A DNA stretch of 64,000 nt from a virus (taxonomy: Duplodnaviria > Heunggongvirae > Uroviricota > Caudoviricetes): IMG/VR virus record IMGVR_UViG_3300032167_000002, positions 152,286-216,285 of that record; one strand, 5' to 3'. A program made the translations under genes and the position numbers. Every line of letters starts with the position of its first letter. The stretch's first letter is position 1. The notes below the pieces were generated by a model. It had not been told where the DNA came from. It saw only the letters and a program-made list of their open reading frames with translations, and did not search any database. Positions 1 to 51,950 of this stretch are shown one piece after another.

Positions 1-270
1 TGACTAGCTTACGCATCGCACCGGAGACTGCACGAGAACTGATAAACAGACCTTCAGCAATATCTCTTGCCTTCCACATAGGTGTTTCCTGATGCTCCTG
101 GAGGAACTTCAGAATTAACTTACCATTATCGGTAAACAAAGGTTTTTCGCCATTTTCGTCCAGTCCACAGAACGCAGACCAATAAAGACTTGCATCTTCA
201 TTCGGCTGAATATTCGGAGCCGCGACAATCAACTCATTTACATACTTAATAAATTCTTGCTTTTTACTCA
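1..270 (-). CDS. Hypothetical winged-helix-like protein, 3'-truncated at the window edge (start ATG at 270)
   Basis: Open frame MSKKQEFIKYVNELIV...GLFISSRAVSGAMRKLV runs off position 1. It is preceded by the stereotyped promoter at 311-344. It is absent from the ORF track because it is partial. Confidence 0.45.
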
Positions 271-312
271 TTTTTACAGATAACTCACTTTCTTTTTTAT
301 TTACCTTGTATA

Positions 313-344
313 TATATTATAACAAATTTAATTTAAAAAATCAA
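313..344 (-). promoter_or_regulatory. Stereotyped sigma-70 promoter for the leftmost partial gene
   Basis: + strand tatatattataacaaatttaatttaaaaaatcaa. Confidence 0.55.
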
Positions 345-838
345 CTAATTCTGTCATATTGCCAGAACTGATAAGTTAAGTCGTTATATGTTAGTAGCTG
401 TCCGCACGCAGCAGGCGCCCACTCTTCCGATTCATCTAGATTCGGAAAATAAGTATCAACATTATCGTGGTCTTTATAAATTTTTGTCACATAAACACGG
501 TCACAAACAGAAAGGAATTCTTGGTATATTGAGCCACCGCCAATAATAAACCATTCTTCATCATCATCAGACAAAGAAACTCGTACTTTAGCTTCATCCA
601 TTGGAATGCTAAAAGTCATGTTTCCAAGAGGACCTCTTGGCTATCTGGAGATAACAATATTTAGTCTATCTTTAAGTGGCTTTTGGGGTAATGAATCCCA
701 GGTTTTTCTTCCCATCACTACAACATGGCCAGTAGTGAGTGCCTTGAAATACTTCAAATCTTCTGGAATATGTTCCAATAGGTCTCCATTATAACCAATT
801 CCCCAATTATTATCAACAGCAACAATTGCAGAAATCAT
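341..838 (-). CDS. folA: Dihydrofolate reductase with a single in-frame TAG at 641-643
   Basis: Track ORFs 641..838 (MISAIVAVDNNWGIGYNGDLLEHIP...NIVISR) and 341..619 (...FIIGGGSIYQEFL...) are in the same frame (both codon tops congruent to 1 mod 3). They are separated only by TAG (+ strand cta at 641-643). The TAG aligns with Q in E. coli DHFR NIILSSQPG. The true stop is TGA at 341. Confidence 0.8.
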
Positions 839-839
839 T

Positions 840-1745
840 TTAAATTCCCAACTCCAATTTCAATTGTGGCTTCATAGGTTCATAATTCTCCATAGTGAAG
901 TCATCAATTGTCATTTCAAAAAAGTTAGTTGCGTTTGGATTCAATACGAGCATTGGCTTGCGTTGCTTTTTCCATTCTTCGGGGTCTGACTGGAATTTCT
1001 CCCAATCAGCGTTAGATTTTTCATCAAAGCGACGAAGCATTTCATCAGCAGCCTCAAGATGACGGTCATAAATCTGCTCATTAGCAACAACGTGAGTAAA
1101 AACGCCGGGCTGATAACCAGTATGACGAGCAATCATCATTAGTAATGCAGCATATTGAATTTCATTAATTCCACCGGGGCCAGAAGCAGTAAGCATATCA
1201 CCACTACGCTGAACAAGCATCATATCCAGGTACTCGCCACGAACATTCCAAATAGTAAGGAACGCACATGGAGCTAAGCCAGGAGTCTCATGCAAGTCAG
1301 TTTCTTGCCATAGTGAAACAATCTTGCGGCGACCATATGGGTCATTTTTAATATCTTCAATCAAATTATTGATTAAATCATAGCGGTCTACGGTTGCACC
1401 ATATCGTTGTCCGATAGTGCCATCGCCAATATCCCATTCATCCCACCAGGTAACTCCACGCTCATGCATCTCTTTGATGTTATTGGTTGGATGCTGATAA
1501 ATCGTGAAAATTTCTCTAATACCAGTTTTCCAAGCCTGGGGTCTTAGAGTGCAAATGGGGAAATTACCTCTACTCAAATCATAAGTTCTAAAAGTATGAT
1601 TTACAGAGTAGGTGTGTGCGGGAGTGCCGTCCGCATAATGAGGGCGGGGATTTTCATCCTTATATCCGTATTCTTTGATTTCCTTAATCATTGAATACAT
1701 ATACTGGTCAGCATTAGAAATAATTTTCATATTCTCAATCCTCAT
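840..1745 (-). CDS. thyA: Thymidylate synthase family protein (ThyA or dNMP hydroxymethylase-like)
   Basis: TS-fold motifs LAPCAFLTIWNV and LDMMLVQRSGDMLTASGPG. TAA stop at 840. Adjacent to DHFR. Confidence 0.8.
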   Translation of the reverse strand: MRIENMKIISNADQYMYSMIKEIKEYGYKDENPRPHYADGTPAHTYSVNHTFRTYDLSRGNFPICTLRPQAWKTGIREIFTIYQHPTNNIKEMHERGVTWWDEWDIGDGTIGQRYGATVDRYDLINNLIEDIKNDPYGRRKIVSLWQETDLHETPGLAPCAFLTIWNVRGEYLDMMLVQRSGDMLTASGPGGINEIQYAALLMMIARHTGYQPGVFTHVVANEQIYDRHLEAADEMLRRFDEKSNADWEKFQSDPEEWKKQRKPMLVLNPNATNFFEMTIDDFTMENYEPMKPQLKLELGI

Positions 1746-2007
1746 TTGACAAACTATATCCAGTTAATTTACAATCAATGTAATTTTGAACAAAAACTTC
1801 CAGTTCATCAATCATTACATCACCTTCGTACTCGCCATTAAAGAGCTGACTATAACTGATAAATTCAATACCAGTAATGCCATATGCGTGAGCTTTTGCT
1901 CTCATGGCATGTGGATTCATACAGGCAATTGCGGAATTAGTTTCCTTTGCCAAAAGCATCAATCTACTTGTCTTGCCGGAACTACGGCTATCAATAATAC
2001 GATACAT
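1735..2007 (-). CDS. Hypothetical small protein with a P-loop-like SSGKTS motif
   Basis: 90-aa track ORF. TGA stop at 1735. Confidence 0.35.
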   Translation of the reverse strand: MYRIIDSRSSGKTSRLMLLAKETNSAIACMNPHAMRAKAHAYGITGIEFISYSQLFNGEYEGDVMIDELEVFVQNYIDCKLTGYSLSNED

Positions 2008-2020
2008 AAATTAACTCCTT

Positions 2021-3013
2021 TTATTTAATACTATATCCAAACTCTTTTGCTTTAAAATAATCTTGCCAGTAATCTTCTCTCTCGTCCAGTCTGGAACGGT
2101 CGCACTCTTCAACAACCTCGAAAGTGAAGTTCTCGGGTCCGGCCGCAATCATTGCAGGATATAATTTATTACGAGTGGGTGCGTCTGCACCTACACCTCG
2201 TTTAATATGCTATTTCCAGCGGTCTGCTAAATTGGCAGCCTAACCAACATAACATTTTCCAGAAGAGATTTCAGTAATTTTATAAATTCCAGTATGAACA
2301 CCAGAACCAATAACTCTACCAATCATATCTGTCGTTGGTTTTTCATAATAGCATTTCCAAATAACCTTATTTAAAGGTTCTTTATCACGCAAATAAGGTT
2401 CTACCTCACGCAGAAGCTCAATTTCGTGGAGGTCTGCGGCAGAAAGCTAAATGCGATAGTAGTCTTGTTGGTCTTTCATTTCTTCTGCTCTCTTGGCTGC
2501 GGCAACTGCGGCATCGTTTGTAGCACGCATAATAGCCACATTTCCTTCAAGAGCTTTATACTATTCCATCAAGCCAGCTACGGTTTCTTGATACTATACT
2601 TCAAAAGAAGCGACATTCTTTTGATATTTCTATGCTTCAAGCTCCAAAGAGCGAGCCAGATTTTCTTGAGCGACTTCCATTTTTGAACTATAAAATAAAT
2701 CTGCGGCTTCTTGAGCCTGCTTTTCCATAGCTGTAATACTACTATTTAATGTGTTAATCTATTCAATGGTTGAGTCCTTTTGGAGCAACAACCTACTATT
2801 TTCTTCTGTTAGTCGTTTAGTTTCAGCTTCAAGCCATATGCGGCCCTCTTCGGCTAAACGATTCTACTCCTAAATTCTTTCGTTCTCTTTGGCAGTCTGC
2901 GCATCCAACTCCAGCGCCGCGTGAATGCGGGGACGCAGAATGCGATATACAACATATCCCGTAATAAGGGACGACAAGATGAACGAAATTAGAAAAATAA
3001 GTAATTCCACCAT
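2021..3013 (-). CDS. Membrane-anchored coiled-coil protein with a C-terminal GIY-YIG nuclease domain; 9 in-frame TAG codons
   Basis: Manual translation of the minus strand gives one 331-codon frame from ATG (3013) to TAA (2021). N-terminal transmembrane helix MVELLIFLISFILSSLITGYVVY, then about 180 aa of coiled coil, then GIYKITEISSGKCYVG[TAG]AANLADRWK[TAG]HIKRG...YWQDYF. TAGs at + strand cta 2210-12, 2240-42, 2447-49, 2561-63, 2594-96, 2630-32, 2759-61, 2864-66, 2870-72. The first aligns with Q or S of the YIG(Q/S) motif. No standard-code ORF of 60 aa or more exists here. Confidence 0.7.
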
Positions 3014-3026
3014 ATGGAAGAAAAAT

Positions 3027-3054
3027 GGGGTAAGATATTTAATATCTTACCCCT
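3027..3054 (-). terminator. Rho-independent terminator for the 3070..3345 transcript
   Basis: Minus-strand GGGGTAAGATATT/AAATATCTTACCCC perfect hairpin followed by ATTTTTCTT. Confidence 0.65.
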
Positions 3055-3069
3055 TAGTATATGTCAAAA

Positions 3070-3345
3070 TTACTCAGCAGCTTCTTCAGTTGCGTCAGGG
3101 TCGAAGCTCATGCCTGCAGGAGTCAGAGACAGGAACTTAACCTGCTTGTGAGTACCATCCTCTAGCTCGATTTCAGCGGGAGTACGAACACCCAAGCCCT
3201 TACGCTGAATAGCGGAAGTAAAGATGCCATCAACAGAGCGCTTCTCTAGACCCAGAGCAGCAGCAACGTCAGCAGCAGTTACGTTCTCGCCGTTAATCTC
3301 CTTCAAATAATTCAGAACCTTCTTGGAATTTTCCTTCATAGCCAT
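3070..3345 (-). CDS. Hypothetical small protein, possibly DNA-binding
   Basis: 91-aa track ORF MAMKENSKKVLNYLKEING.... TAA stop. Confidence 0.35.
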   Translation of the reverse strand: MAMKENSKKVLNYLKEINGENVTAADVAAALGLEKRSVDGIFTSAIQRKGLGVRTPAEIELEDGTHKQVKFLSLTPAGMSFDPDATEEAAE

Positions 3346-3454
3346 AGTAAATAATCTCCTTCTTAATAAATAATATTTTTTTAGTTTATATTTTCTAACC
3401 TCTCGGTTATGTAAATATTATATCAAAAAATTTTTGAAAAGTCAAGAATTTTTT

Positions 3455-3646
3455 TTAATTTTTCTCAAGCAGTTCCATCACAAGCTCGTCAATAGCGACC
3501 ATATCTTCCAGTCTATCGACGGAACTTGAGAGACGCATAATTTCTTCTTCTGCTTGATGAACGGCTTTCTTATCATCGCTCGTTTGAATGATTCGTTCGC
3601 ACTTAGCGATTTTTACAGCCAGATTCTTGAGTTCTTTTTTCTTCAT
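3455..3646 (-). CDS. Hypothetical small coiled-coil protein
   Basis: 63-aa track ORF with its own promoter at 3676-3707. Confidence 0.3.
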   Translation of the reverse strand: MKKKELKNLAVKIAKCERIIQTSDDKKAVHQAEEEIMRLSSSVDRLEDMVAIDELVMELLEKN

Positions 3647-3707
3647 TGAAAATTTTCATCCTTAATCTTTACGATTTTATTATACAAAATTTTTTTCTTT
3701 TTGTCAA

Positions 3708-5699
3708 TTACTCGATTCCAAAAGTCTGAATGAAGTCAGATTCTGACAAGATTGGAATCCCCAATGACTTGGCAGTCATGTTCTTAGAGGAAGTGGAATT
3801 CACATCATTGTTAATGAGGAAATTTGTGTTCTTAGAAACAGAACCAGTTACCTTTCCTCCAAGAGCCTCAATTCGTGCCTTGATTTCATCACGGTTCTTG
3901 AAATGAGTGAGTTTTCCAGTAATTACAAAAGTTTTTCCAGTTAAACTCTCGCCGACCGGGGCGGGAGCGACTTCAGGTGCATTAAAGTGAATATAATGGT
4001 CAGCAAGTAGTTTTGCTTCGGCATAATTAAAGCTAACTAAACTATTATGCATTTCACCACCGAAATTAGGAAGAGTGTAGAAAGCGAAACCACCTTCCGC
4101 TGCCTCGACAAACTTTTCCCAAGTTTCAAAGTGCTTTGCCAATTCTTTCGATGCCGTTGAGCCAATCAACGGAATACCGAGGGCCGCAATGAACTGATGT
4201 AGTTCACAATTTGCGCCAGTATTAATAGCGTTCAGAACCTTCTCGACGGATTTGGCTCCAAATCCAGGCTTCTGGACCCATTCACTTCTACGAATGGAAA
4301 GTTCAAAAATGTCAGTAAAATCATTGACCCAACCCCAATCAATCAGTTTCTCTAAAGTTGCCTTTGAGATACCCTTCATATCAAGACCTTTCTTACCGCA
4401 GAAGTGGTCCAGACGATTGATTAGTTTACCAGGACAAGTTGGAGAGACACAGGTCAGATTCATAGAGTCATTCAACTTACTATACTTGACCTCACCGCCG
4501 CACACAGGACAACAATTGGGGCGTTCAAACCAAGGATAATCATACTGAGGTAAATCCTCGGGTTCTTCCGCAGACGCAATCTGAGGAATAATCATATTAG
4601 CCTTAAAGACGTCCACCTTTTGGCCTTTATAACCCCAACCATGTAAAGTTTCATTTAGAATACTTACATTGTGTAAGCTAGCTCTTTCTACGGTCGAACC
4701 ATCTACGTCGATTGGTTCAAAGACAGCAACGGGAGTAAGGACACCGGTTCTACCCATCGTCCATTCAATATCCAACAAGCTAGTCTGGTAAGTTTCATCA
4801 TAGAATTTATATGCCAGAGCATTTTTGAAATGATGCGTTGTTTCTCCAAGAGAACGACCATAAGCACAATCATTAAACTTAATAACTACACCATCAATTG
4901 GATAACTATATCCTTGAGCCATTTGAGTCACTTGCTCAATAAACATATCCATTTCAACCTCAGTATCATCTGCGTAATAAGCAGGACCAGTCGCATATGG
5001 AACTATAGTAAATCCAAAAGGTACAAGATAATTAAGTTTTTGGCTAAGTTTGTACTCGGTACCATCATCAAACATCATTGGAGTGAGAACATCCCACGCA
5101 ACAAATGTAAGATTGCGGCTTGCACATTCTTTGGAGTCTAAAAGACGAATACTGCCTGCGGCGAAATTTCTAGGGTTCTTATATTCTGAACTGAATTTTT
5201 CAAAATCAGTATAGGTGCAAATGATTTCTCCATCAATAACCAATTCATCCATATAAGGAATTTTACTTGGAATTGAAGGAAGAACTCTTGCATTATGCAG
5301 GATATCTTCACCGACAAGACCATTTCCCCTAGTCTCCGCAGAAACTAATTCTCCGTTGCGGTAAGTAAGAGAACAAGTTAAACCGTCCATCTTACACATA
5401 GCCAAGAAGTCCTTTTTACCTACAAAAGCAGAAACTTCATCAACGGATTTAGTTTTTTCAAGAGATAACATCTTATGAGAATGTTCAACTTTTTTCAAAG
5501 CATTTACAACTTCATAAGAAATAGATTGAGTAGGAGAATTAGATAAAATCAAACCTGTTTCTTTTTCTAATTCTTGTAACTCAAAATATTTATTATCCCA
5601 TTCTTCGTCCGTAATTTTTGGATTACCTTCATCGTATGCTTTTGTACATTCGTTAAGGTATCTTACAAGAAACTTGATTTTATCATAGATACTATCCAT
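3708..5699 (-). CDS. ligA: NAD+-dependent DNA ligase
   Basis: 663 aa. KMDG adenylation motif (AMCKMDGLTCSLTYRNG), Zn-finger cysteines CCPVCGG...C, C-terminal BRCT (GKTFVITGKL). SD AAGGAG before the ATG. Confidence 0.9.
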   Translation of the reverse strand: MDSIYDKIKFLVRYLNECTKAYDEGNPKITDEEWDNKYFELQELEKETGLILSNSPTQSISYEVVNALKKVEHSHKMLSLEKTKSVDEVSAFVGKKDFLAMCKMDGLTCSLTYRNGELVSAETRGNGLVGEDILHNARVLPSIPSKIPYMDELVIDGEIICTYTDFEKFSSEYKNPRNFAAGSIRLLDSKECASRNLTFVAWDVLTPMMFDDGTEYKLSQKLNYLVPFGFTIVPYATGPAYYADDTEVEMDMFIEQVTQMAQGYSYPIDGVVIKFNDCAYGRSLGETTHHFKNALAYKFYDETYQTSLLDIEWTMGRTGVLTPVAVFEPIDVDGSTVERASLHNVSILNETLHGWGYKGQKVDVFKANMIIPQIASAEEPEDLPQYDYPWFERPNCCPVCGGEVKYSKLNDSMNLTCVSPTCPGKLINRLDHFCGKKGLDMKGISKATLEKLIDWGWVNDFTDIFELSIRRSEWVQKPGFGAKSVEKVLNAINTGANCELHQFIAALGIPLIGSTASKELAKHFETWEKFVEAAEGGFAFYTLPNFGGEMHNSLVSFNYAEAKLLADHYIHFNAPEVAPAPVGESLTGKTFVITGKLTHFKNRDEIKARIEALGGKVTGSVSKNTNFLINNDVNSTSSKNMTAKSLGIPILSESDFIQTFGIE

Positions 5700-5721
5700 T
5701 TCTATTCTCCTTAATTACATA

Positions 5722-5753
5722 TATATTATAGAAAAAATTTTTTATTTTGTCAA
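5722..5753 (-). promoter_or_regulatory. Stereotyped promoter variant (-35 TTGACA) for ligA
   Basis: + strand acatatatattatagaaaaaattttttattttgtcaa. Confidence 0.55.
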
Positions 5754-6025
5754 CTCCAGAAATCACTGAAGTCAAATATATTGACATAAAAATCTGGAAC
5801 ATCTTCTACTAATTGGACTCTATAACCATATACAAACATAGGTTCATCAAAAAACATAATTTTATCATTTGGATTTATATTAATTCGATGTAAAATTTGA
5901 GCAAAAGTAAAATCGTTCATTCTGATTTCAATACCATTTTGTTCGCCAAACCACTCATAGAGTCGGGACATTTCTCGTCCCGACTCAACGATAGGCATAC
6001 TTGGTCTGAAATAAATCGTTCTCAT
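5750..6025 (-). CDS. Hypothetical protein
   Basis: 91-aa track ORF. Its ATG overlaps the TGA of the gyrA-like gene (ATGA). Confidence 0.35.
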   Translation of the reverse strand: MRTIYFRPSMPIVESGREMSRLYEWFGEQNGIEIRMNDFTFAQILHRININPNDKIMFFDEPMFVYGYRVQLVEDVPDFYVNIFDFSDFWS

Positions 6026-21978: not shown

Positions 21979-22151
21979 TTAGGAGGTTCACCCTCCTTAA
22001 TCATTTTTGCAAGACTTTTTTCAAGGGATTCGATAGTTGTTTGCATATATTCATGACCCTTTTCGTAGCCTGTAATCGCTGCGAAAGGAGGGTTATTAAT
22101 TGGCATTTTCATACCATCTATAAAAATATATCCCTTAATTCCAAACATCAA
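21930..22151 (-). CDS. Hypothetical protein
   Basis: 73-aa track ORF. Confidence 0.25.
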   Translation of the reverse strand: MMFGIKGYIFIDGMKMPINNPPFAAITGYEKGHEYMQTTIESLEKSLAKMIKEGEPPKCTGYMFVLIPEKEVK

Positions 22152-22726
22152 CCTTTCGCCTCGCTTAAATAGTTTCTAATTTCTTCTCGATAATTATAAA
22201 CATATCGAGGAACAAGTTTTTCAATCATCGGGTCGCTATTAGGCATCTGAAAAGCCTGGCGAACCAATGTTGCACTAATACCTTCGAATCTATCAAGAAA
22301 TTTAAATCGAAGTAACCATCTTTCATCTTGGGCAAACCAACCGAGCATAATACGGGGGTCATCACTGTAATAGATAGTCATATCAGAATCTTTGGTTTTA
22401 CTAAACATCTTGATATAAAGATATCGGCCCCATGCGTGGCTATTGTCAGCTTCATCAGTCATATCAGCTAAAGGAAAAATATGAATATATTTCATTTGTT
22501 CTGTTGTAAAATGTTCGTGAAGAGAGCCTTCCAAAAGCATGATACGAAAATCAATGGGTAGAGGATTGCGGACAGTGCCGCTCTTATCGGCAGAGCCAAC
22601 GAAGATATAAAGGTCGCAATTATTTGCGGCGCAATCTTCATAAGCCTTTTGAACCATATTTAAATGTCCTCTATGAAAAGGCTGTGCTCTAAATAAAATA
22701 ACACCTGTCATAATAATTCTCCTCAC
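22148..22726 (-). CDS. Nicotinamide-nucleotide adenylyltransferase (NMNAT, NatV/NadM-like)
   Basis: Nucleotidyltransferase HxGH motif in FRAQPFHRGHLNMV. 192 aa. Confidence 0.65.
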   Translation of the reverse strand: MRRIIMTGVILFRAQPFHRGHLNMVQKAYEDCAANNCDLYIFVGSADKSGTVRNPLPIDFRIMLLEGSLHEHFTTEQMKYIHIFPLADMTDEADNSHAWGRYLYIKMFSKTKDSDMTIYYSDDPRIMLGWFAQDERWLLRFKFLDRFEGISATLVRQAFQMPNSDPMIEKLVPRYVYNYREEIRNYLSEAKG

Positions 22727-23040
22727 TTAATCACTAAATCTTTTGCTTCTTCTTGAGTGATACCGAAATAGTCTTCAAAAATTTCCATATCACCAGGGTC
22801 ACAAGCCCCAGAACAGATACATTTTCCCTCATGCAACACCCAATACCACATACCATCGGGGTATTTAATTAAATGCTCTATTAAAGCAAAAAAATCTTTA
22901 ATATTGGGACAACCATATACAGCAACTAAACCCTCACCGGTAAATTCATCTGTGAAATAAATATAAGGGTCTGCTACGACACGGTCTCGAATTTTATCTG
23001 TAAAAGCTACAATGATAGGAGCATCAATATTCACAGTCAT
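22723..23040 (-). CDS. Hypothetical protein
   Basis: 105-aa track ORF. Confidence 0.25.
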   Translation of the reverse strand: MTVNIDAPIIVAFTDKIRDRVVADPYIYFTDEFTGEGLVAVYGCPNIKDFFALIEHLIKYPDGMWYWVLHEGKCICSGACDPGDMEIFEDYFGITQEEAKDLVIK

Positions 23041-23112
23041 TTATATCAATTCCTTTCTTAACTTTATATATATATTATAACATATTTTTTAATAAAAATC
23101 AAAGAGGAAGCA

Positions 23113-23640
23113 TTAAGCTTCCTCTAAGATATGGAGAATGTCGTCAACAATAGCATCATAACCAACTATATCGCCAGTGGAAATTGTATAAGGGAGTTGC
23201 TCCTTATTGAGCAATTCCAAAATTTCATCAGCAATCTTATCAGATTCTTCTTCAGTCTGGAATCGTCCTACTGGATTATATTCTTTGGTGCGAACTAGGA
23301 AATAGTTTTTACAATTGTAGCTGTTCATTACTTTGCGGACGACATTATTAAAATCTTCGCCCAAAACGGGGTCATGGTTATAAACTAAAGATAGAAGTAA
23401 GGGAGAGTCAGTAATAACAACATCAACTTTATCAGCACAACGGCTGATGCGGAAATATTGCTTACCAAAGATGTAAGCCTGATTATTGAAAACAGCTTTA
23501 CTCTCTTCCCATACCTTATCCTTAGCGAACTCAGTTACCAGCTCTGCGTTAATACCACGCATTTTGAGCTGGCTGAAGATATATGCGGCACCAGTAGACT
23601 TACCAGTACCAGGAGAACCAAAAAGATTAACTAAAATCAT
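23113..23640 (-). CDS. P-loop NTPase/kinase (possibly a nucleoside or nicotinamide-riboside kinase)
   Basis: Walker A FGSPGTGKST. Lies within the NAD-metabolism cluster. Confidence 0.4.
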   Translation of the reverse strand: MILVNLFGSPGTGKSTGAAYIFSQLKMRGINAELVTEFAKDKVWEESKAVFNNQAYIFGKQYFRISRCADKVDVVITDSPLLLSLVYNHDPVLGEDFNNVVRKVMNSYNCKNYFLVRTKEYNPVGRFQTEEESDKIADEILELLNKEQLPYTISTGDIVGYDAIVDDILHILEEA

Positions 23641-24156
23641 TTATTTTCCTCCATATGATAATTTGAAATCAGTTTTTTCTGTTTTTTTATAAGTAGATGC
23701 ATTTTTAGCATAGGTACTTTCTGCTTCGCGCAATTCTTGGCGCACATCCATTAAAATTTTACCAAGAATATTTTTACCTTCGATTTCTGCACACTTGGGG
23801 CAAACACAATTACCCCAAGTATTATCATGCCAAGTATTGCCTTCTACTAATTCTTCATCACCAGTGTCTAAAAGTTTTTGTTTTAAATCGGGGTCAGAAA
23901 ATTTGTATTTCAAACCATCATGCATTACACTAATCTTAATACGCTCCCAGTCAGGGCGCAAAGAGCAGTGTCGCCCCATTCGCTTTGCCTGTCCAGGTGT
24001 TTTTGCTTTTGCAATAGCTTTAAATTCACTTTCACTCTTGGTTTTCCAAGCTTGGAACCAGTGTTCCACAGTAGGAAAAGTTACACCATCTACAGTAAAA
24101 GGAGAGGGGAAAAAGTTGCTTAGGAAAGCGTACTTTCCATCAAACATCGCAATCAT
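23641..24156 (-). CDS. NADAR (YbiA-like) domain protein
   Basis: FLSNFFPSPFTVDGVTFPTVEHWFQAWK, typical of DUF1768/NADAR. Confidence 0.65.
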   Translation of the reverse strand: MIAMFDGKYAFLSNFFPSPFTVDGVTFPTVEHWFQAWKTKSESEFKAIAKAKTPGQAKRMGRHCSLRPDWERIKISVMHDGLKYKFSDPDLKQKLLDTGDEELVEGNTWHDNTWGNCVCPKCAEIEGKNILGKILMDVRQELREAESTYAKNASTYKKTEKTDFKLSYGGK

Positions 24157-24168
24157 AGCGATACCTCC

Positions 24169-24975
24169 TTAGAAACTAAATGGACTTTCTTCTTTGTTGC
24201 TGTTTTCGTGCCAAGCACGAGTCTTGATACGAATATAGGGCATGCAAATATCTCTTTTATGGAGATTTCTGGTGTGGCGCTCTTCAATCTTGCGAAGAGT
24301 CTCATAGTCGGGAAGTACTTCATCCAAAAGATAAGCATCCAGTACATCATAAGGAATACCAGTGTTATCTTCATCGGTCTTACCACTCATACCATCACCA
24401 GGTGCCTTATGAACCAGGTGTGCGGGCAACTCATCCAGATTGTCGCCAATCTCAATGACCTCACGGACGCAGTAATCCTTTAAGATAGCGAAGTCGCCAG
24501 CCAGGTCACCATACTTGGTAGTGTAGCCGATATACAGTTCGGATTTATTGCCAGTATTGATTACTCGACCGCCCATATCTGCGGCAACTGCGTAAAGAGT
24601 TGCCATACGGATACGAGCAGGCGTATTTGTATTAACTGCGGGATTTTTATAGGCGTCACCCACCATTCCCGCAAACATCTTGGTGATAGGGCCAATATTG
24701 TAGGCTCTATAGGGAATATGAAGAATGTTGCATACTTCCACAGAGTCCTTAATATCCTTCTGGTCACCATCGGGCATCAGCACACCAAAAACTCTTTCGG
24801 GACCCAGTGCTCGGACAAGCAGGGCGGCCGCAATCGTGGAATCCTTACCACCGGAAATACCAATAACTGCCTTGGTATTCTCATTACCATTCTTGACAAA
24901 ATATTTCTTAATTTCATCAACAATGTGCTGGATTTCCTCTTCAACATCAATTACTTTGAAATCAAAATCACCCAT
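24169..24975 (-). CDS. nadE: NH3-dependent NAD+ synthetase
   Basis: PP-loop GISGGKDST. 268 aa. Confidence 0.8.
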   Translation of the reverse strand: MGDFDFKVIDVEEEIQHIVDEIKKYFVKNGNENTKAVIGISGGKDSTIAAALLVRALGPERVFGVLMPDGDQKDIKDSVEVCNILHIPYRAYNIGPITKMFAGMVGDAYKNPAVNTNTPARIRMATLYAVAADMGGRVINTGNKSELYIGYTTKYGDLAGDFAILKDYCVREVIEIGDNLDELPAHLVHKAPGDGMSGKTDEDNTGIPYDVLDAYLLDEVLPDYETLRKIEERHTRNLHKRDICMPYIRIKTRAWHENSNKEESPFSF

Positions 24976-24977
24976 AT

Positions 24978-25484
24978 TTACGCCTCCAGTTTGTAAATAT
25001 ATACATCATAGTCCTCAGAAAGGGCTTCCCAAATCATCGTTTTAATTACTTCCCAATTTGCGCCACCAAGGCCGCAGCCAATATGGTCAGGAAAGCCAAT
25101 TTTACTGCCGTGGGGTACCTGGTCCCTAATCTTACCAAGACAAGACCAGAAGCCATCATAAGAAGTATATCTCTTACCATCATAGCCATAATATTGCTGT
25201 GCAAACATATTTATCACAGTCTTGTCTACATCAACAGGAACTAACTGAATCTCGCCCAGAAGGGTATCAGTCCAGTCGGGTCCGTTTTCCATCCCGCCGC
25301 ACATTTGATAGATTTCTTCTTCTCTCTTGGTGCAGAGGGCAATATAATCTTCATATACTCGATGCCATCTTGTTTTAATGTTCTTGGCGATGCCAGAGGC
25401 CATGCGCCCCTGGCAATTCACCTGATGGCAGTAATAATCCAATTTCGCTTCGAGCATATCACCTTTAATAAAGTGAATACTCAT
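24978..25484 (-). CDS. Macro domain protein (ADP-ribose binding/hydrolase)
   Basis: HQVNCQGRMASGIAKNI...GCGLGGANW motifs. Confidence 0.7.
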   Translation of the reverse strand: MSIHFIKGDMLEAKLDYYCHQVNCQGRMASGIAKNIKTRWHRVYEDYIALCTKREEEIYQMCGGMENGPDWTDTLLGEIQLVPVDVDKTVINMFAQQYYGYDGKRYTSYDGFWSCLGKIRDQVPHGSKIGFPDHIGCGLGGANWEVIKTMIWEALSEDYDVYIYKLEA

Positions 25485-27031
25485 TACGCAATCTCCGGAT
25501 ACAGACGAGCACGAATTTCGTGGAAATTTTCAATATTCTTCAGAAAACCATCTGCGAAGGAGGTGCGAAGCAGGGTTTCATCATCGGGAACCCATTCGCC
25601 ATAGCCGTCAATGCATACAAACTCATCCTTGTCGGGGTGAATCTGAACCGCGCAGCAACCTTTATGGGACTTCTTCAGTCCGCCCTCGTCAGTCTTGGGG
25701 TCCTTATAGATAGGAACTTCCTTGCCGCCAAAGATACCGTGAGTAGCCTTCATTGCCATGCCCCAGGTATCACGAGTCAGAACAGTGAACTTATTGTCGG
25801 GGCTGAACAGAGCGTGGAAGCAGAAAGCACCAACACCGAAGACCACATTGGTAGCCGCGAAGCCCAGCTGAGCCAGAGTTTCGTAAATTTCACGAACCTT
25901 ATTCAGAGTGCAGCCGTCACCATAAATCAGACCAATATGGGGGTCCAGAACCTTATAGCCAGCTTCATTGATGGTGCCACCAAACTCATCCCACAGTTTC
26001 TGGATAGTGCCGATGGTAATGGAAACCATGTCGCCAGAGTCAGGACGGATAAGCAGCTTGCCATTGTGAGCCAAAATTTCAGCCTTGCAGGCAGGAATGA
26101 TATTGTCTACCATATTCCAGTAGTCATAGGTATCAGATACCATAGAGAAACTGGTATTGGGGTAAATTTCAGTCAGCATACGCTTCACAAAAGTGATTTC
26201 ATCGCCGTCGATTGCGAAATTCGCAGCCATAACAGAGTGTTCAGTGGAAACGGCACCCAGACCCAGCTTATGCTCGGCGCACTGTGCGTCGTAATAGTCG
26301 TCCAGGTAGGGTAGCGCAGGAATGGTAGAGGTCTTATTGAAAGACAGGAGCCAAGAAGCGGAGCAACGAGTTGCGTCTTCCAGGCAGCTCATACCACGGA
26401 AACCGAAGTCAGCCATTGCCATAAAGGGGTCGGCGCCGGGGGCAGTCATATCGTAATACTTCTTTGCAATCTTGTGGTATTCCCAACCAACGGTCGCATA
26501 TGCACACATAGGCCACACTTCAGTCTGGAGCAGGCACTCAACCCACTGAACCAGCCATGCGAAACGAGGGTGAGTATTTCTCATCTCAACGATGGGAACA
26601 CCCATATTGACAACAGTGCCTTCGGGCAAGGCGCGGATTTCCAGGGGCAGATAACCCAGCTCATGCAGTTCAACGATGCGATTACGAGCGACATTGTTGA
26701 TACCCAGGTGAGCATCAATATAATGGTCATACTCATACATCACCCAGTCCAGAGGAGTGGCGAAGAAGCTGTCGAAGCCTTCCTTCATATCAGTGAGGAA
26801 AGGATGAACGCCCCAAACGACCATCTTGGGGAAATTCTCATTCATAGCCTTTCGAGGAGTCAGGTAAGAAGCCAGAAACTCCTGATTGTCAGGATACATC
26901 AGGGGGTGGCACTGCTTGTAAGAGTCGCTGTACAGCATAATCATTCTACGAAAATCCATATTATCAATTTCCTTTCTTTTTTCTCGCAATGCGGATTCGT
27001 TTACTTTCCATCTTGTTAGGAATATGCTCAC
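25484..27031 (-). CDS. nadV: Nicotinamide phosphoribosyltransferase (NadV/NAMPT)
   Basis: 515 aa with NAMPT-like GFRGMS and GDG motifs. Confidence 0.75.
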   Translation of the reverse strand: MSIFLTRWKVNESALREKRKEIDNMDFRRMIMLYSDSYKQCHPLMYPDNQEFLASYLTPRKAMNENFPKMVVWGVHPFLTDMKEGFDSFFATPLDWVMYEYDHYIDAHLGINNVARNRIVELHELGYLPLEIRALPEGTVVNMGVPIVEMRNTHPRFAWLVQWVECLLQTEVWPMCAYATVGWEYHKIAKKYYDMTAPGADPFMAMADFGFRGMSCLEDATRCSASWLLSFNKTSTIPALPYLDDYYDAQCAEHKLGLGAVSTEHSVMAANFAIDGDEITFVKRMLTEIYPNTSFSMVSDTYDYWNMVDNIIPACKAEILAHNGKLLIRPDSGDMVSITIGTIQKLWDEFGGTINEAGYKVLDPHIGLIYGDGCTLNKVREIYETLAQLGFAATNVVFGVGAFCFHALFSPDNKFTVLTRDTWGMAMKATHGIFGGKEVPIYKDPKTDEGGLKKSHKGCCAVQIHPDKDEFVCIDGYGEWVPDDETLLRTSFADGFLKNIENFHEIRARLYPEIA

Positions 27032-27212
27032 GGGTCGCCAGTTCAGCTTTTACACGAGCCTGGTAGGCTCTCTTGGCGGAATAATCTGCATCTTCCCAGT
27101 CATAATCGCCCCAGCGATATGTATGTCGCAGATGTGCCAGAAGCTGGCGAGTTTTCAGATTTTTCATCTGCTCTTCGGAGAGGATTCCGCAGTCTCTTTC
27201 AAAGTTACTCAT
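26964..27212 (-). CDS. Hypothetical protein
   Basis: 82-aa track ORF. Confidence 0.25.
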   Translation of the reverse strand: MSNFERDCGILSEEQMKNLKTRQLLAHLRHTYRWGDYDWEDADYSAKRAYQARVKAELATREHIPNKMESKRIRIARKKKGN

Positions 27213-27238
27213 TTAATCACTTCCTTTACTTTCTATAT

Positions 27239-27269
27239 ATATTATATCATATTTTTTTATAAAAATCAA
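27239..27269 (-). promoter_or_regulatory. Stereotyped sigma-70 promoter before NadV
   Basis: Same motif, placed directly after the terminator at 27273-27297. Confidence 0.6.
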
Positions 27270-27272
27270 AAA

Positions 27273-27297
27273 AGCCCCTTGAGTCTCAAGGGGCTTT
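27273..27297 (-). terminator. Terminator hairpin AGCCCCTTGAGTCTCAAGGGGCT
   Basis: Minus-strand stem-loop followed by a T run, placed directly before the promoter. Confidence 0.6.
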
Positions 27298-27300
27298 TAC

Positions 27301-27702
27301 TTATTCCACTCTATCTTCATATAAGGTGAGGCCGCATTCTCCAGATTCGGGGAACCACTCGCAAATAGAAGTGATTTTACCATCATAATCAGTGAAAATA
27401 ACATATTCCATTCCGTCACTCATTACGAGGAAATATGTCCAACAAGCGCACCTATACTCTTGGAGCATAAACACATCGGGAACGTGTGCAAGAACTGTGC
27501 CAATAAAATCTTCATTCCCAATTCTCGGACCAATCATATCCTCTAAAATGAGAATAGCGTTTTCGTTAAGGTCGGGAATGGATTCAACAATTGTTTCCGT
27601 AGACGATGGGGTTTCTTCATAAGGGGTGTCGCAAGCAATAAGTGATACACAAAGGCAAATTGCCAAAACAAAGCAAATAAAAAGTTTAATCGCTTTCTTC
27701 AT
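27301..27702 (-). CDS. Putative lipoprotein
   Basis: Signal peptide with lipobox: MKKAIKLFICFVLAICLCVSLIAC. Confidence 0.5.
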   Translation of the reverse strand: MKKAIKLFICFVLAICLCVSLIACDTPYEETPSSTETIVESIPDLNENAILILEDMIGPRIGNEDFIGTVLAHVPDVFMLQEYRCACWTYFLVMSDGMEYVIFTDYDGKITSICEWFPESGECGLTLYEDRVE

Positions 27703-28472
27703 TTCACTTCTCCTTCGGGAATTTCAATTAAATTGAAGACATCTTGAATATCTTCATGGAAGACCAGCTCAGCTCTGAAATCTGCTACTGTAGGGTCTCT
27801 GTTAATGACAACCAGATGACTATCATCGCAGTAGAATGGCAGGCTTGCGGCAGGTTGAACTACCAGGGAGCTACCAACCACAATCATCAGGTCGGCTTGA
27901 GCAGCTGCCACCTGGGCATTGCTCCAAGCAGGAAATGCCAGCCCTTCACCATACAGGACAATATCGGGTCGGATAGTGCCTTCGCCGCACAGAGGGCATT
28001 TAGGAATATCATTTAGATTATTGTAGTTTCCATCCAATACATCTTCTGGAATAAACAAGTCGTGACCACAATCCTGGCAATACCAACGACTCATAGTACC
28101 GTGGACAGCATATATCCTATCCATGCCAGTGTCTTCGTGTAAACCATCAATATTTTGTGTAATCACAGACACTTTTCTTGCTTCCTGCAGCTCAGAAATT
28201 CTTTGATGGGCGATGGTTGGCTTAGCTCCACGAAAATCCATTTTTTCACGCAGATACTCGAAAAAAGCCTGTTCGTGCTTCTGAAGGCAGGTGCTGCTCA
28301 GCATATATTCCGGACTCTTGCCTCCAATATACGGACTTGCGTACAGACCATCCGCACTGCGGAAATCCGGAATACCGGAGCCAGTTGAGATACCGGCTCC
28401 GGTAAAAAACACGATATGCCGAGCGTCCGCAATTATCTTATTTAGTTTCGCAATACGCTCATTAAAATCCAT
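27699..28472 (-). CDS. Sir2-family NAD+-dependent deacylase or ADP-ribosyltransferase (sirtuin)
   Basis: GAGISTGSGIPDFR, QNIDGLH, and Zn-ribbon CQDCG...CPLCG. Confidence 0.8.
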   Translation of the reverse strand: MDFNERIAKLNKIIADARHIVFFTGAGISTGSGIPDFRSADGLYASPYIGGKSPEYMLSSTCLQKHEQAFFEYLREKMDFRGAKPTIAHQRISELQEARKVSVITQNIDGLHEDTGMDRIYAVHGTMSRWYCQDCGHDLFIPEDVLDGNYNNLNDIPKCPLCGEGTIRPDIVLYGEGLAFPAWSNAQVAAAQADLMIVVGSSLVVQPAASLPFYCDDSHLVVINRDPTVADFRAELVFHEDIQDVFNLIEIPEGEVK

Positions 28473-28475
28473 ATC

Positions 28476-28994
28476 TTACTCTCCCATTTGTGCCTTGACG
28501 CAAGCATCGCCTGCAGCCATAGCTTCTTTCAGTGCCTCTTGGGCAACCTTCATATCGCAGCCCTCTTTCTTCAAGAAAGGCATCACATTCTTCATAATGA
28601 CACCCTTATTACCAGAGCAGATAGAAACTGCGTTACAAACTCCCCAGTAGTTAATCATCTTGACAATTTCATCCTTGTCGTCGATAACCTTAGGAGCATA
28701 CTCCAAAGCGATAGAGAGCTTCATCAGATATTCAGCCTTACGAGCCTTCAATTCTGCATCTCTCTTGGGGTCTGTTGCCCCATCGGGACAGGTATCGACC
28801 ATCTCTTGGACAGTCTTCTTATACTTCAACATCACTTCATCGACAAAAGCATCTGTGATTTCTACTCTCTTTTTACCAGAGGTAGCAGCTTTGTCGATTG
28901 TGGCGACCATATCAGCCAGAGTCAAACGTCTCAGCTTATCGCCGTTTTTCAAGGCAGTTGTCATATCTGCCTTAATAGACTCATACTTATTCAT
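28476..28994 (-). CDS. GatB/YqeY domain protein
   Basis: 172 aa resembling YqeY. Confidence 0.6.
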   Translation of the reverse strand: MNKYESIKADMTTALKNGDKLRRLTLADMVATIDKAATSGKKRVEITDAFVDEVMLKYKKTVQEMVDTCPDGATDPKRDAELKARKAEYLMKLSIALEYAPKVIDDKDEIVKMINYWGVCNAVSICSGNKGVIMKNVMPFLKKEGCDMKVAQEALKEAMAAGDACVKAQMGE

Positions 28995-29012
28995 TGGAGT
29001 CTACTCCTTTCT

Positions 29013-29840
29013 TTAATGATATACAGTAATCCATTCCTTCCAGTAAGGGTCATAACCTTCGTTGAATAACTCTTCGGGGAAAATGGACTTAGTGGTATAG
29101 ACATGGTCAACAAGACCATCAGTGCTGGCCATTTCACCCAAAATAATAGTCTTTTCGCAATGGGTGACATACAGACTTACGCTCTTGGCGCCAGCAGCCT
29201 TAAGAGCTTTAGCAGAATGGTAGAAAGTACCACCACGAGAACAGATATCGTCAACGATAAGAACATTCTTATCCTTAACTGCTTCGGCGTTGATAATATC
29301 CAGGCCCTGAATCTGACCGGTCTTCCAATCTCGCTTTTTCATTCCAAAAGCGTAAGGAATATCAAACCCACCAGAATAACGCTTCATAGCACCTTCATCG
29401 GGGAAGAAGAGTACATCAGCCTGAGCCTCAAAAATTGCATCCAGAACATAATTAGTAATGGGCATTTCTTCTACATTGTTCAGAAGGGCCAGGCTTACGT
29501 TGCTATGTGCGTCACGCACATGAACAACCTTGAAATTCAGAGAGTTGATAACTTCGCAGAAATACTTGAGAGTGAAAACATCTTCATCAGACTTCACTCG
29601 GTCCATGCGGGCATGGGGGATGTAAGGCATTTCCAGAACAACATCGCTGTAAGAATAGACGCGGTCCAGATGGCGCTTTACGCAAATCAAAGAGAAAAGC
29701 TCTGCATCATTTTCATAATACCACTCGACCAGAATATTACCGCGAGTGTCAAATTCATCCCCATTGGGGTCAAACTTCATCAACAGAGTGCCATCGGGGA
29801 ACTGACCCTGCTTAATTTCGACATTACCTACTTTAATCAT
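29013..29840 (-). CDS. Phosphoribosyltransferase-domain protein (PRPP-synthetase-like)
   Basis: PRTase motif VLIVDDICSRGGT. Confidence 0.55.
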   Translation of the reverse strand: MIKVGNVEIKQGQFPDGTLLMKFDPNGDEFDTRGNILVEWYYENDAELFSLICVKRHLDRVYSYSDVVLEMPYIPHARMDRVKSDEDVFTLKYFCEVINSLNFKVVHVRDAHSNVSLALLNNVEEMPITNYVLDAIFEAQADVLFFPDEGAMKRYSGGFDIPYAFGMKKRDWKTGQIQGLDIINAEAVKDKNVLIVDDICSRGGTFYHSAKALKAAGAKSVSLYVTHCEKTIILGEMASTDGLVDHVYTTKSIFPEELFNEGYDPYWKEWITVYH

Positions 29841-30129
29841 ACATTTTCCTCCATGTTTCTCCCATTCCGAGTTCTAAATCGGCACTTCCATTCCAACCGA
29901 ATACTCGGAAAGCTCGTAATTTGATATATGCTTTATATCTTTTGAAATTGCCCTCGCAGTATAGAAAAGCTGAAGGACAATATGGCAAATCTTCTTCTTT
30001 CAATTCTGAAAGCTGTTCACGCGACATTAAGCAGCTTTCTCGCAAAGAGTTTAGATGATGTTGACCTGGCACAGCTTCATCGCCTCCAGAGCAGTCTTGT
30101 GGCTCTCGGGGGTAACACAGGCGCAGCAA
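29833..30129 (-). CDS. Hypothetical protein
   Basis: 98-aa track ORF. Confidence 0.25.
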   Translation of the reverse strand: MLRLCYPREPQDCSGGDEAVPGQHHLNSLRESCLMSREQLSELKEEDLPYCPSAFLYCEGNFKRYKAYIKLRAFRVFGWNGSADLELGMGETWRKMYD

Positions 30130-30641
30130 TCAGCAATCACATTCACAGGAACCTCGGGCAGCGTAGCCTTAGCCAGAATGGCATTGGACATAACACAGAT
30201 TCCGGTACACAGACCCATCAGAGTAACCTCTTCAACACCCAGACGCTCATTGATATCGAACAAAATGTTCTGCAGTTCGACAGAGCCAAAAGTAGGCTTT
30301 TCAACCTTGATAGGGTTAATGTCGGTCATGGGGTAGACCTCATAAGCGTCGGCATAGGTGTCGATAACATTGATGTAAGCCTTGAACACTTCATCAACAA
30401 TGGAATGACCGGCAGTGCCCTTGATGCAATGACGAACCGGCAGATTTTTACCCTCCAGGGTATCCATGTAATTTTCGGGATGAGTATCCTTGGTGAAGAT
30501 AACCACAGTATCGGGAGCTGCCATCTGCTCAATGGTCTCTGCGACCAGCGGAACGATAGCCTGCGCCTCCTTGGTGCCCAGGGAACCATCAACGAAATCC
30601 TTCTGCATATCTACGACAATAAGAACTTTCATATAATTCAT
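30051..30641 (-). CDS. pncA: Isochorismatase-family nicotinamidase
   Basis: Cysteine-hydrolase motifs VVDMQKDF and GLCTGICV. Confidence 0.65.
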   Translation of the reverse strand: MNYMKVLIVVDMQKDFVDGSLGTKEAQAIVPLVAETIEQMAAPDTVVIFTKDTHPENYMDTLEGKNLPVRHCIKGTAGHSIVDEVFKAYINVIDTYADAYEVYPMTDINPIKVEKPTFGSVELQNILFDINERLGVEEVTLMGLCTGICVMSNAILAKATLPEVPVNVIADCCACVTPESHKTALEAMKLCQVNII

Positions 30642-30664
30642 ATCCTTTCCTTTATCTTACATAT

Positions 30665-30695
30665 ATATTATAACATATTTTTTTATAAAAATCAA
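30665..30695 (-). promoter_or_regulatory. Stereotyped sigma-70 promoter before pncA
   Basis: Same motif, placed directly after the terminator at 30700-30719. Confidence 0.6.
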
Positions 30696-42222: not shown

Positions 42223-42648
42223 TTATTCAGGCTCCCTTCTCATATTACTTAAATCTTCAAACCAACCGCCATGTGGGTATTTTTCAGTTGCAGGTTGGTG
42301 CGCCCATCGTATGCCACCAGGCACAGGCTCATCATACATATCAATTTTTGGAAAATCTGGGTCAGGCTCTACATTTACAGGCGGAACATAAGGAGTCATA
42401 TCTCCATCTTTTAAGAATTGGATAGGACTTCTTGTTCCATCTTTCTTGATTGCCCAATAGGTTTGTGCTAGTTGAGTTTCTCTGCGAATTCGTTCCGTTT
42501 CTTCTGCTACACGAGTGCGCTCAGCACTTACATAACACTGAAGGGCCTGCCGCACAAGGCAATCACCGGTTTCGTCCGCAAAAGCACAGGACCTCCCCTA
42601 ACACTCTACAAACTGAGAGTGTTCCCAACTTTTTAATGGACACTTCAT
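42223..42648 (-). CDS. Hypothetical protein with an in-frame TAG at 42598-42600
   Basis: The ATG at 42648 overlaps the upstream TGA (ATGA). MKCPLKSWEHSQFVEC[TAG]GRSCAFADETGDCLVRQALQCY... runs in the same frame as the track ORF 42223..42555. Confidence 0.5.
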
Positions 42649-46505: not shown

Positions 46506-47456
46506 TTAGCGGATACACTCATAACGAGGGGAGTCCAGCTTCTCAAACATCAAATCCAGACCAGTCTTGCCGGACATAATCTGCTCGAAGATGGAAGGAG
46601 ACATACCAGACACATAGGAAATGTTGCCAACTCCAATGTCCTCGGCATGGAAGCAACGGGTTGCCTTGTCAACAACCTCATAAGGATACAGGTCCTTGGC
46701 ATTAACCTTGGTAGTAGTATCCTTTGCGAAATCCGCATAAGTCTTAACCTCGGGATTGCGCTTCATACGCTCAATGTCATGACGAGCAAAGGCGTTCTTA
46801 TACTTTAGACCTGCCTTGGAAGGAATCTTGTCGAACTCGATTTCATCCCAACGACCCTCAGACATCAGACGCTCCAGGACGTTGATGCGGGCACGCAGAA
46901 CAGACAGAGTCTTACGATACTGCTTGGGAGTCATACCCATAAAGGCACGAACCTTTGCGGCAGTCTTACGAGTCTTAGCAGAGCTGGTGTTCTCGGAAGG
47001 CATCCACTTACCCAGCAGAGAGGGAGTCTTACACTGGACGTCCAGAGCCAGCTGGTGCTTAACGATGTTCAGAGCCTGGGTCTCCAGAGGAGTACCGATG
47101 AACACGAACAGGTCATCCCAGCGACCGAACTCAGGAACGTGAATCAGGTTGCGCTGCATAGCGTCGGTATTGTAGGAAGCCAGCCACTTGGTCGCAACAC
47201 GGAAGAAACGACGCTCACCCTGGCCACCACGCACGTCACGGATGTAGAACAGACACTTCAGCGCATAGGTAGGATCCTCGGCGAAGGCGTTCTTGAACAG
47301 CAGGATAACATCCTCGTCAGAACGAGTACGGTAGGCCGCACCCATGGCGAAGAGATCCAGCAGAGCATTCATAGTAGACTTGTGGGTAACTGCACCATTC
47401 TCAGTCAGAGTGTAGTTGGTAGCAGTCTTCATTCCATTCAGAAATGCATTACTCAT
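46506..47456 (-). CDS. Hypothetical protein (DUF2828/TROVE-like)
   Basis: 316 aa. The family assignment is from memory only. Confidence 0.35.
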   Translation of the reverse strand: MSNAFLNGMKTATNYTLTENGAVTHKSTMNALLDLFAMGAAYRTRSDEDVILLFKNAFAEDPTYALKCLFYIRDVRGGQGERRFFRVATKWLASYNTDAMQRNLIHVPEFGRWDDLFVFIGTPLETQALNIVKHQLALDVQCKTPSLLGKWMPSENTSSAKTRKTAAKVRAFMGMTPKQYRKTLSVLRARINVLERLMSEGRWDEIEFDKIPSKAGLKYKNAFARHDIERMKRNPEVKTYADFAKDTTTKVNAKDLYPYEVVDKATRCFHAEDIGVGNISYVSGMSPSIFEQIMSGKTGLDLMFEKLDSPRYECIR

Positions 47457-51733: not shown

Positions 51734-51950
51734 ATAAAATAAAAAACAGCGAATAAGGCTAATCTTTGGACTTAGGTCGGATCTGATTTCCAGATATCCG
51801 ATTGCCACTTAGTTCCAACTGTAAAACCTTATTCGCACCCCATAGGGCGGTCTCGAGGAATTTCTCCCAGTGCACTAAGGCGAGACCGGTCGAGCAATAA
51901 TGACTTGGTGCGCCGCCTGGGATTCGAACCCAGGACACCCGCCTTTTTCA

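Follow-up and report, generated by a model that had tools for sequence, protein, structure and literature searches.

The window, that is, the whole stretch of 64,000 nucleotides that was analysed, belongs to a large (about 130–190 kb) uncultured gut phage. Its gene models, about 80 when TAG is read through, lie on the minus strand and include no structural genes and no terminase. A cluster running from a ligase gene to a dihydrofolate reductase (DHFR) gene carries the following features:

341–838, minus strand: dihydrofolate reductase gene, 165 codons, intact but for a single in-frame TAG
641–643, minus strand ('cta' on the plus strand): the in-frame TAG, codon 66 of DHFR, read as Gln
840–1745, minus strand: thymidylate synthase gene without TAG, matching annotated thymidylate synthase in tblastn; it ends 1 nt ahead of the start codon of DHFR
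2021–3013, minus strand: GIY-YIG nuclease gene with a hydrophobic N-terminus, a coiled coil and a GIY-YIG domain (PF01541), 9 TAG
3027–3053, minus strand: terminator-like hairpin (12 pairs, then a T run) immediately preceding the GIY-YIG, thymidylate synthase and DHFR genes
3417–3445, minus strand: sigma-70-type promoter (TTGACT-17-TATAAT with TG) preceding the gene cluster of which DHFR is the last member
3679–3707 and 5725–5753, minus strand: two more promoters upstream of the ligase-to-DHFR cluster, both with 12/12 matches

A preliminary description of this DNA had assigned one TAG to the DHFR gene, and this TAG was located at codon 66 with full-length homology running across it. With the TAG read through, residues 1–163 correspond to positions 1–159 of the 159 in the Pfam DHFR_1 profile (PF00186, E = 5e-44), and PHROG 316 (dihydrofolate reductase) matches the read-through open reading frame at 1.5e-46; since the profile matches are continuous across codon 66, DHFR homology is present both before and after the TAG. 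When aligned with E. coli FolA, the phage protein shows the catalytic Asp27, Leu28 and the GRKTW and IGGG (nucleotide-binding) motifs, all in place, and the TAG falls opposite Gln65 of FolA. The three best solved DHFRs have A, N or Q opposite codon 66. A split gene with a restart at Met73 was also considered and is ruled out by the profile match running unbroken over the TAG. The gene at 341–838 is functional-looking and would encode a FolA-type DHFR with predicted NADPH-dependent dihydrofolate reductase activity.

The same TAG is present in L001 (IMGVR_UViG_3300018430_000824), a contig from another sample and an independent assembly that is 99.8% identical to the window over positions 1–1223. 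The next relative after it (L081/L002) shares 87–88% nucleotide identity with the window, and the thymidylate synthase gene is 86% identical in L081. Elsewhere, DHFR codon 66 is AAA (L081), AAT (L106), ACT (L003), CAA (L083) or GTT (L082), encoding K, N, T, Q and V respectively, and among the relatives compared TAG at this codon is confined to the window and L001. The dN/dS ratio with respect to L081 was 0.09 for codons 1–65 and 0.30 for codons 67–165, the latter value indicating that the 3′ part of the gene, past the TAG, is under purifying selection. As judged from these comparisons, the DHFR TAG is a young substitution at a variable surface position, probably a neutral change of the CAG/AAG-to-TAG type. 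Because it is strain-specific and located at a variable residue, it carries little regulatory meaning; it looks like neutral drift and not like a conserved timing device. As a separate observation, the DHFR genes of L001 and the window differ by a single nucleotide (TTG to TAG), which gives L001 a second TAG at codon 28 (467–469 of L001), the active-site Leu28; decoding as Gln would produce L28Q. The DHFR of Mycobacterium tuberculosis has Gln at the position matching Leu28.

The other genes of the window that carry TAG, together with a lysin-like gene that does not, are as follows:

12928–15261, minus strand: lysin-like protein gene, 777 residues (Peptidase_M15_3, phage tail lysozyme, Amidase_2 and SH3), 0 TAG
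15337–16587, minus strand: PIN-PhoH ATPase gene, 416 codons, TAG at codon 370 (15478–15480)
16571–16825, minus strand: small gene of no assigned function, TAG at codon 51 (TAG also in L139, Q in L146)
16869–17297, minus strand: gene of no assigned function, TAG at codon 101 (Q in 4/6 relatives)
19490–20203, minus strand: metallophosphoesterase gene (phrog_547), TAG at codon 196 with a Cys-rich tail of 41 residues beyond it
42223–42648, minus strand: gene of no assigned function, TAG at codon 17 (137/141 residues aligned in L219)
59474–59878, minus strand: HNH endonuclease gene within the tRNA array (phrog_2255, E = 9.5e-36), 2 TAG

The single TAG that had also been noticed in the PIN-PhoH gene is present at codon 370, so that recoded TAG does occur in two early-type genes. 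Pfam places PIN_4 at residues 9–125 and PhoH at 217–411, the latter match spanning the TAG, and the predicted product is of the PhoH2 type, in which a PIN domain at the N-terminus is joined to a PhoH P-loop ATPase that carries a GDxxQxD motif. The TAG aligns with the Q of 'GDI-TQVD' in PDB 3b85, which is the invariant Gln of this motif, and relatives encode Gln (CAA/CAG) at this codon in 7/7 cases. Some relatives have TAG elsewhere in PhoH, at codons that are CAA/CAG in the window. In the metallophosphoesterase gene, codon 196 is TAG in L139 and GAA in L141, and the alignment runs on beyond it. Homology likewise extends to either side of the TAGs in the GIY-YIG and HNH genes. The two genes named by the preliminary description are both real cases, but they represent an undercount, given that at least 10 of the about 80 gene models (~12%) carry TAG, with 19 in-frame TAGs in total.

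Eleven of these 19 TAGs are found in two nuclease genes (nine in the GIY-YIG gene and two in the HNH gene). In the GIY-YIG gene, 9 of 19 Gln-type codons are TAG (47%); the remaining gene models together have 10 of 490 (Fisher p = 1.2e-9). The gene is conserved and syntenic, its orthologs hold 0–13 TAG depending on the lineage, and at codons 258 and 268 (within 'YVGxA' and 'RWKxH') TAG and CAA/CAG replace each other among relatives. No TAG was found in the large replication genes of the window (NAD-dependent ligase, GyrA and GyrB) or in its sigma factor, NAD-metabolism and lysin-like genes. Orthologs of the lysin-like gene in L140, L144 and L147 contain 2–4 TAG; its freedom from TAG in this genome is the opposite of a strict rule that lysis genes are recoded.

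Several properties of the window as a whole indicate that TAG is a sense codon. The 80 gene models terminate in TAA (54) or TGA (26) and never in TAG, and the Gln-type codons within them comprise 19 TAG, 202 CAA and 288 CAG, TAG representing 3.7%. Coding density over 1–50.4 kb amounts to 91.9% with read-through compared with 87.6% if genes are cut at the first TAG, the protein extensions beyond TAG are conserved in relatives, and no interruption by TAA, TGA or a frameshift was observed in window genes with recognisable homology. Of 46 ortholog comparisons at window TAGs, 21 show Gln opposite, and at the TAGs of relatives the window has Gln in 8 of 22 comparisons, whereas the background frequency of Gln is 2.8%; about half of the TAG positions face non-Gln residues, mostly within poorly conserved segments. 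These patterns argue that TAG is glutamine in this phage (genetic code 15). Some plus-strand open reading frames do end in TAG (e.g., 29982–30737); they were rejected as antisense shadows of Pfam-matched minus-strand genes (in this case an isochorismatase gene, 30051–30641). Annotation under the standard code would split DHFR, PhoH and some ten further genes of the window into fragments.

Between 50.3 and 63.7 kb, ARAGORN predicted 24 tRNA genes, two of which are adjacent and have the anticodon CUA. This region of the array contains:

53742–53816, minus strand: suppressor tRNA 2, anticodon CUA, 50.1 bits with the Rfam tRNA model; U1:C72, G2-C71, G3-C70 and G73
53817–53891, minus strand: suppressor tRNA 1, anticodon CUA, 48.7 bits with the Rfam tRNA model; U1:U72 mismatch and G73
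53921–53990, minus strand: permuted tRNA-like (YrlA-like) element, RF02553, 33.5 bits, E = 2.8e-5, below the gathering score
54043–54071, minus strand: promoter TTGACT-17-TATAAT with TG, 11/12 matches, upstream of the YrlA-like element and both suppressor tRNAs

An unpaired or weak 1:72 position, G2-C71, G3-C70 and G73 are the acceptor features of tRNA-Gln. Suppressor tRNA 2 displays them, and at its 5′ end (UGGGGGUUAG) the first ten bases are those of the phage tRNA-Gln(CUG). Suppressor tRNA 1 has C2-G71 and C3-G70, and its amino acid is not certain since it is without the classical G2-C71 and G3-C70 pairs of tRNA-Gln. Its type is conserved in relatives, and some orthologs carry G2-C71 and G3-C70, as in L164. 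In four related contigs a tRNA-CUA gene is likewise located between tRNA-Ser(UGA) and tRNA-Leu(UAA). Both tRNA-CUA appear Gln-like and would be charged with Gln by a host enzyme, which the alignment of TAG with Gln supports indirectly. The 'Pyl' label given by ARAGORN led to pyrrolysine being considered and rejected, because both tRNAs match the general tRNA model as an ordinary cloverleaf and TAG aligns with Gln. A second tRNA-CUA of L164 (8313–8409) is 97 nt long and has a ~22-nt insertion in the region of the variable arm, and its acceptor is that of a canonical tRNA-Gln (U1-A72, G2-C71, G3-C70, G73).

Neither release factor nor aminoacyl-tRNA synthetase genes were noticed among the window ORFs scanned. 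HDV-like and theta ribozymes are described beside suppressor tRNAs in other recoded gut phages; in the segment 53400–54400 they gave no match at E ≤ 1. The YrlA-like element lies between the promoter and suppressor tRNA 1, with its T-arm and 3′ acceptor strand including CCA placed first, followed by the 5′ acceptor strand and D-arm, and it is kept upstream of the suppressor in L154 (about 1800–1900). A gene for a DUF2828 protein is located at 46506–47456. The tRNA array contains other structured RNAs on the minus strand: a full-length ROOL RNA at 57682–58295 (Rfam RF03087, 327.8 bits, model positions 1–574 of 574), a 'drum' RNA at 62889–62999 (RF02958, 78.1 bits) and a partial OLE-like match at 51749–51836 that covers model positions 437–594 only (RF01071, 53.4 bits).

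The tRNA-CUA genes lie ~150 nt downstream of the TTGACT-17-TGnTATAAT promoter at 54071–54043. The preliminary description had stated that a strong promoter recurs many times in the tRNA array, which the promoter scans bore out. A 29-nt module (TTGATTTTTATAAAAAAATATGATATAAT), in which a 17-nt spacer separates a -35 hexamer from an extended -10, is present at 14 sites with ≤3 mismatches where 0 are expected. These sites span 21185–61003 on the minus strand, and a consensus scan added further near-perfect sites, all on the minus strand, including 316–344. One copy precedes the sigma factor gene:

37241–38143, minus strand: gene for a phage sigma-70-family factor with regions 1.2, 2, 3 and 4, TAG-free
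38190–38218, minus strand: 29-nt promoter module before the sigma gene

Since this module class must drive the phage sigma gene, it should be readable by the host RNA polymerase, and as the suppressors and the DHFR cluster have this host-readable class in common, the class would be early and the suppressors would be made together with the DHFR message. The proposal that suppressor tRNAs are expressed from the start of infection fits this promoter anatomy, in which the promoter at 54071–54043 is of the class found at the sigma gene and the DHFR cluster; promoter similarity, in other words, suggests early suppressor expression. The primary-like sigma factor of the phage could also read the 29-nt-module promoters. 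Additionally, transcription of the GIY-YIG, thymidylate synthase and DHFR genes may be attenuated or otherwise timed because of the strong hairpin (3053–3027) located after the nearest upstream promoter.

The module also serves to trace relatives. Exact copies are present in 77 IMG/VR contig stretches, many of them belonging to contigs of about 100–190 kb. A further 39 stretches, from MAG contigs, contain a slightly degenerate version, and several of these come from ruminant gut samples. The module marks a large clade of phages from animal and human guts. The module-bearing MAGs are mostly Clostridia or other Firmicutes, with some Bacteroidales, Treponema and Methanobrevibacter that represent binning noise, and these noisy bins point weakly to a Firmicutes host. 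In the promoter-matched loci, TAG accounts for 8.9% of Gln-type codons in window-homologous ORFs and 10.0% in other ORFs, a coarse comparison that mixes lineages and gene classes. The terminase of L156, a promoter-matching contig, was considered as a late-gene anchor for the clade and discarded given that its relatives are phages of 15–45 kb from another clade.

Among the relatives, TAGs in other genes come and go between close strains. Recoding of early genes is far heavier in two AT-rich (29–32% GC), more distant members of the clade: L160 (IMGVR_UViG_3300032038_000374) carries 13 TAG in DnaB, 17 in a RecJ-like gene, 5 in an SSB-like gene and 3 in the ligase gene, and L170 (IMGVR_UViG_3300031867_001403) carries 2 in ThyX and 13 in a RecJ-like gene, with an AAA ATPase of this set holding 6. 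With such heavy early-gene recoding in L160 and L170, a single TAG in DHFR is unremarkable for the family. As for described phages, megablast of window positions 1–6000 gave no match among GenBank phages, the best tblastn matches of the thymidylate synthase in the same set were Bacillus phages with <50% identity, and a search for a recorded protein identical to the thymidylate synthase gave no match.

Taken together, the best explanation overall, and in our opinion a probable one, is that of a code-15 phage with its own suppressors, a recent and tolerated TAG in DHFR, and a presumably early promoter class shared by suppressors and target. The TAG would be tolerated because the phage supplies two tandem Gln-like tRNA-CUA (53742–53891). 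These tRNAs would be transcribed from a near-consensus promoter of host type (sigma-70/sigma-A, extended -10), and the same promoter class would drive the phage sigma gene and the ligase/thymidylate synthase/DHFR cluster. Suppressors and DHFR mRNA would then appear together early in infection, and ribosomes would insert Gln at the DHFR TAG in competition with RF1 of the host.

A more far-reaching version, which we put forward tentatively and regard as possible rather than likely, is that the code switch is immediate and not delayed, with TAG drifting freely into replication and nucleotide-metabolism genes and selection for TAG acting on dangerous genes. If the immediate switch were true, recoding in this family would not be a timer of late genes or lysis, and the membrane-anchored GIY-YIG nuclease would be locked to cells with active phage suppressors; the TAG enrichment of its gene may serve to lock the translation of a dangerous nuclease.

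The first alternative is that TAG works as a translational timer that delays DHFR, and PhoH with it, until suppressor tRNA has accumulated, which would extend the timing model to middle genes. DHFR activity would indeed be fully dependent on suppression, as a fragment of 65 residues cannot be active, and regulation of such a kind has been proposed (Borges et al., bioRxiv 10.1101/2021.08.26.457843). The GIY-YIG gene of the same cluster is also TAG-enriched (p = 1.2e-9), and as this enrichment holds in several relatives, gene-specific selection for TAG does exist in the family. On the other hand, the DHFR TAG is single, sits at a variable residue and is shared only with the 99.8% identical twin, five more distant lineages having sense codons; the PhoH TAG is likewise unique to its lineage while the PhoH TAGs of relatives are at other Gln positions, a pattern of turnover and not of conservation; and the suppressors have the same promoter class as the genes supposedly timed. 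A timer at DHFR is thereby an unlikely explanation.

It could also be argued that DHFR is a decaying pseudogene, the TAG being a plain nonsense mutation in a dispensable auxiliary gene. The TAG is recent, the closest strain (L001) gained a second one at the active-site Leu28, and DHFR is absent from some relatives (L160 and L170). However, the interruptions are all TAG and never TAA, TGA or a frameshift, the DHFR motifs are all kept with dN/dS of 0.09–0.30, TAG also occurs in essential-looking motifs (the PhoH Gln) and faces Gln family-wide, and matching suppressor tRNAs are encoded by the phage. Decay of the gene is therefore very improbable.

A third possibility, raised in the preliminary description, is that the host itself decodes TAG, which would make its presence in the phage trivial. 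To our knowledge, no bacterium with TAG read as Gln has been described. Phages of code-25 hosts do mirror the code of their host, and where the host is recoded about 90% of the phage genes are recoded too (Borges et al., bioRxiv 10.1101/2021.08.26.457843). In the window, by comparison, only 10/80 genes carry TAG, at 3.7% of Gln-type codons, and the phage possesses two dedicated suppressors with a promoter of their own. Moreover, the MAG bins of clade contigs are mostly Clostridia/Firmicutes from animal guts, i.e., standard-code phyla, and standard-code hosts are predicted for all TAG-recoded clades (Borges et al., bioRxiv 10.1101/2021.08.26.457843). With ~12% of genes containing TAG and suppressors encoded by the phage, a TAG-decoding host is disfavoured and we hold it to be highly improbable. 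Finally, a sequencing or assembly error, for which the TAG being one nucleotide away from sense codons might speak, has a negligible probability given the same TAG in the independently assembled L001 from a different sample and 18 further in-frame TAGs in the window.

The preferred reading, of a self-suppressing code-15 phage with a tolerated TAG, places the window phage among systems that are already known. Code 15 has been reported in gut phages including the Lak, crAss-like, Jade, Sapphire, Agate and other clades (Borges et al., bioRxiv 10.1101/2021.08.26.457843). Like these, the window phage has in-frame TAG at Gln positions, a phage tRNA-CUA, depletion of TAG as a terminator, a large genome, an animal or human gut origin and a minority of recoded genes. 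Unlike them, it shows no apparent late-gene bias in the part covered by the window, which holds no structural genes, its lysin-like gene has 0 TAG, and the strongest TAG enrichment in the window concerns the GIY-YIG nuclease gene and not a lysis gene.

In phAss-1 and the proposed Phassvirus (roughly 136 kb, 28–36 tRNAs, 2–3 tRNA-SUP-CTA genes), most recoded ORFs are virion genes, the suspected host is Clostridia, and TAG is present in the dUTPase and the RNR-activating protein of some strains only (Babkin et al., 2023, PMC10607447). The window phage is similar in that TAG is read as Gln and that its presence in nucleotide-metabolism genes varies between close relatives; it is not closely related to phAss-1, judging from the megablast and thymidylate synthase searches of the GenBank phage set. 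That TAG in a non-late gene is unexpected, as had been implied for DHFR, is consequently overstated with TAG known in the dUTPase and RNR-activase genes (Babkin et al., PMC10607447). In crAss-like phages, reading of TAG as Gln in a standard-code host was reportedly established by metaproteomics (Peters et al., 2022, PMC9523058). The window phage belongs to a different order, the recoding of those phages is concentrated in a late block, and their code 15 is experimentally validated whereas that of the window phage is predicted from sequence.

At the level of the tRNA, suppressors of the E. coli supE type consist of a tRNA-Gln body with a CUA anticodon that competes with RF1 at UAG and inserts Gln there. 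Suppressor 2 resembles them by its weak 1:72 pair, G2-C71, G3-C70 and G73, and suppressor 1 departs from them by C2-G71 and C3-G70. Unlike supE-type suppressors, those of the window are phage-encoded, duplicated, diverged and apparently co-transcribed with a YrlA-like element.

That recoding varies among replication and nucleotide-metabolism genes is already documented in published surveys. The DHFR TAG is an ordinary codon swap of a kind reported before in recoded phages and not a new phenomenon; by itself it changes little, adding one more code-15 phage. Its value is modest and lies in being a data point against stop-codon recoding as a strictly late-gene device: TAG sits in early-type genes of this family, it turns over between strains 88–99.8% identical, and the suppressor genes have seemingly early, host-readable promoters.

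Other genes on the minus strand of the window were recorded in passing. A major-vault-protein-like gene with shoulder and repeat domains (30734–33250, 838 residues) and an SPFH/flotillin-like gene (17479–18987, 502 residues) are both TAG-free, and their products are strongly conserved among relatives, with 94–98% identity in the closest. A cluster of NAD genes at 22148–30641 comprises NAMPT/NAPRTase-like, NAD synthase, Sir2, cytidylyltransferase-like, phosphoribosyltransferase-domain and isochorismatase/nicotinamidase-like proteins. Elsewhere in the window, an RNA ligase is encoded at 33993–35411, Thg1 at 38624–39478 and a GmrSD_N+HNH protein at 47631–48821.
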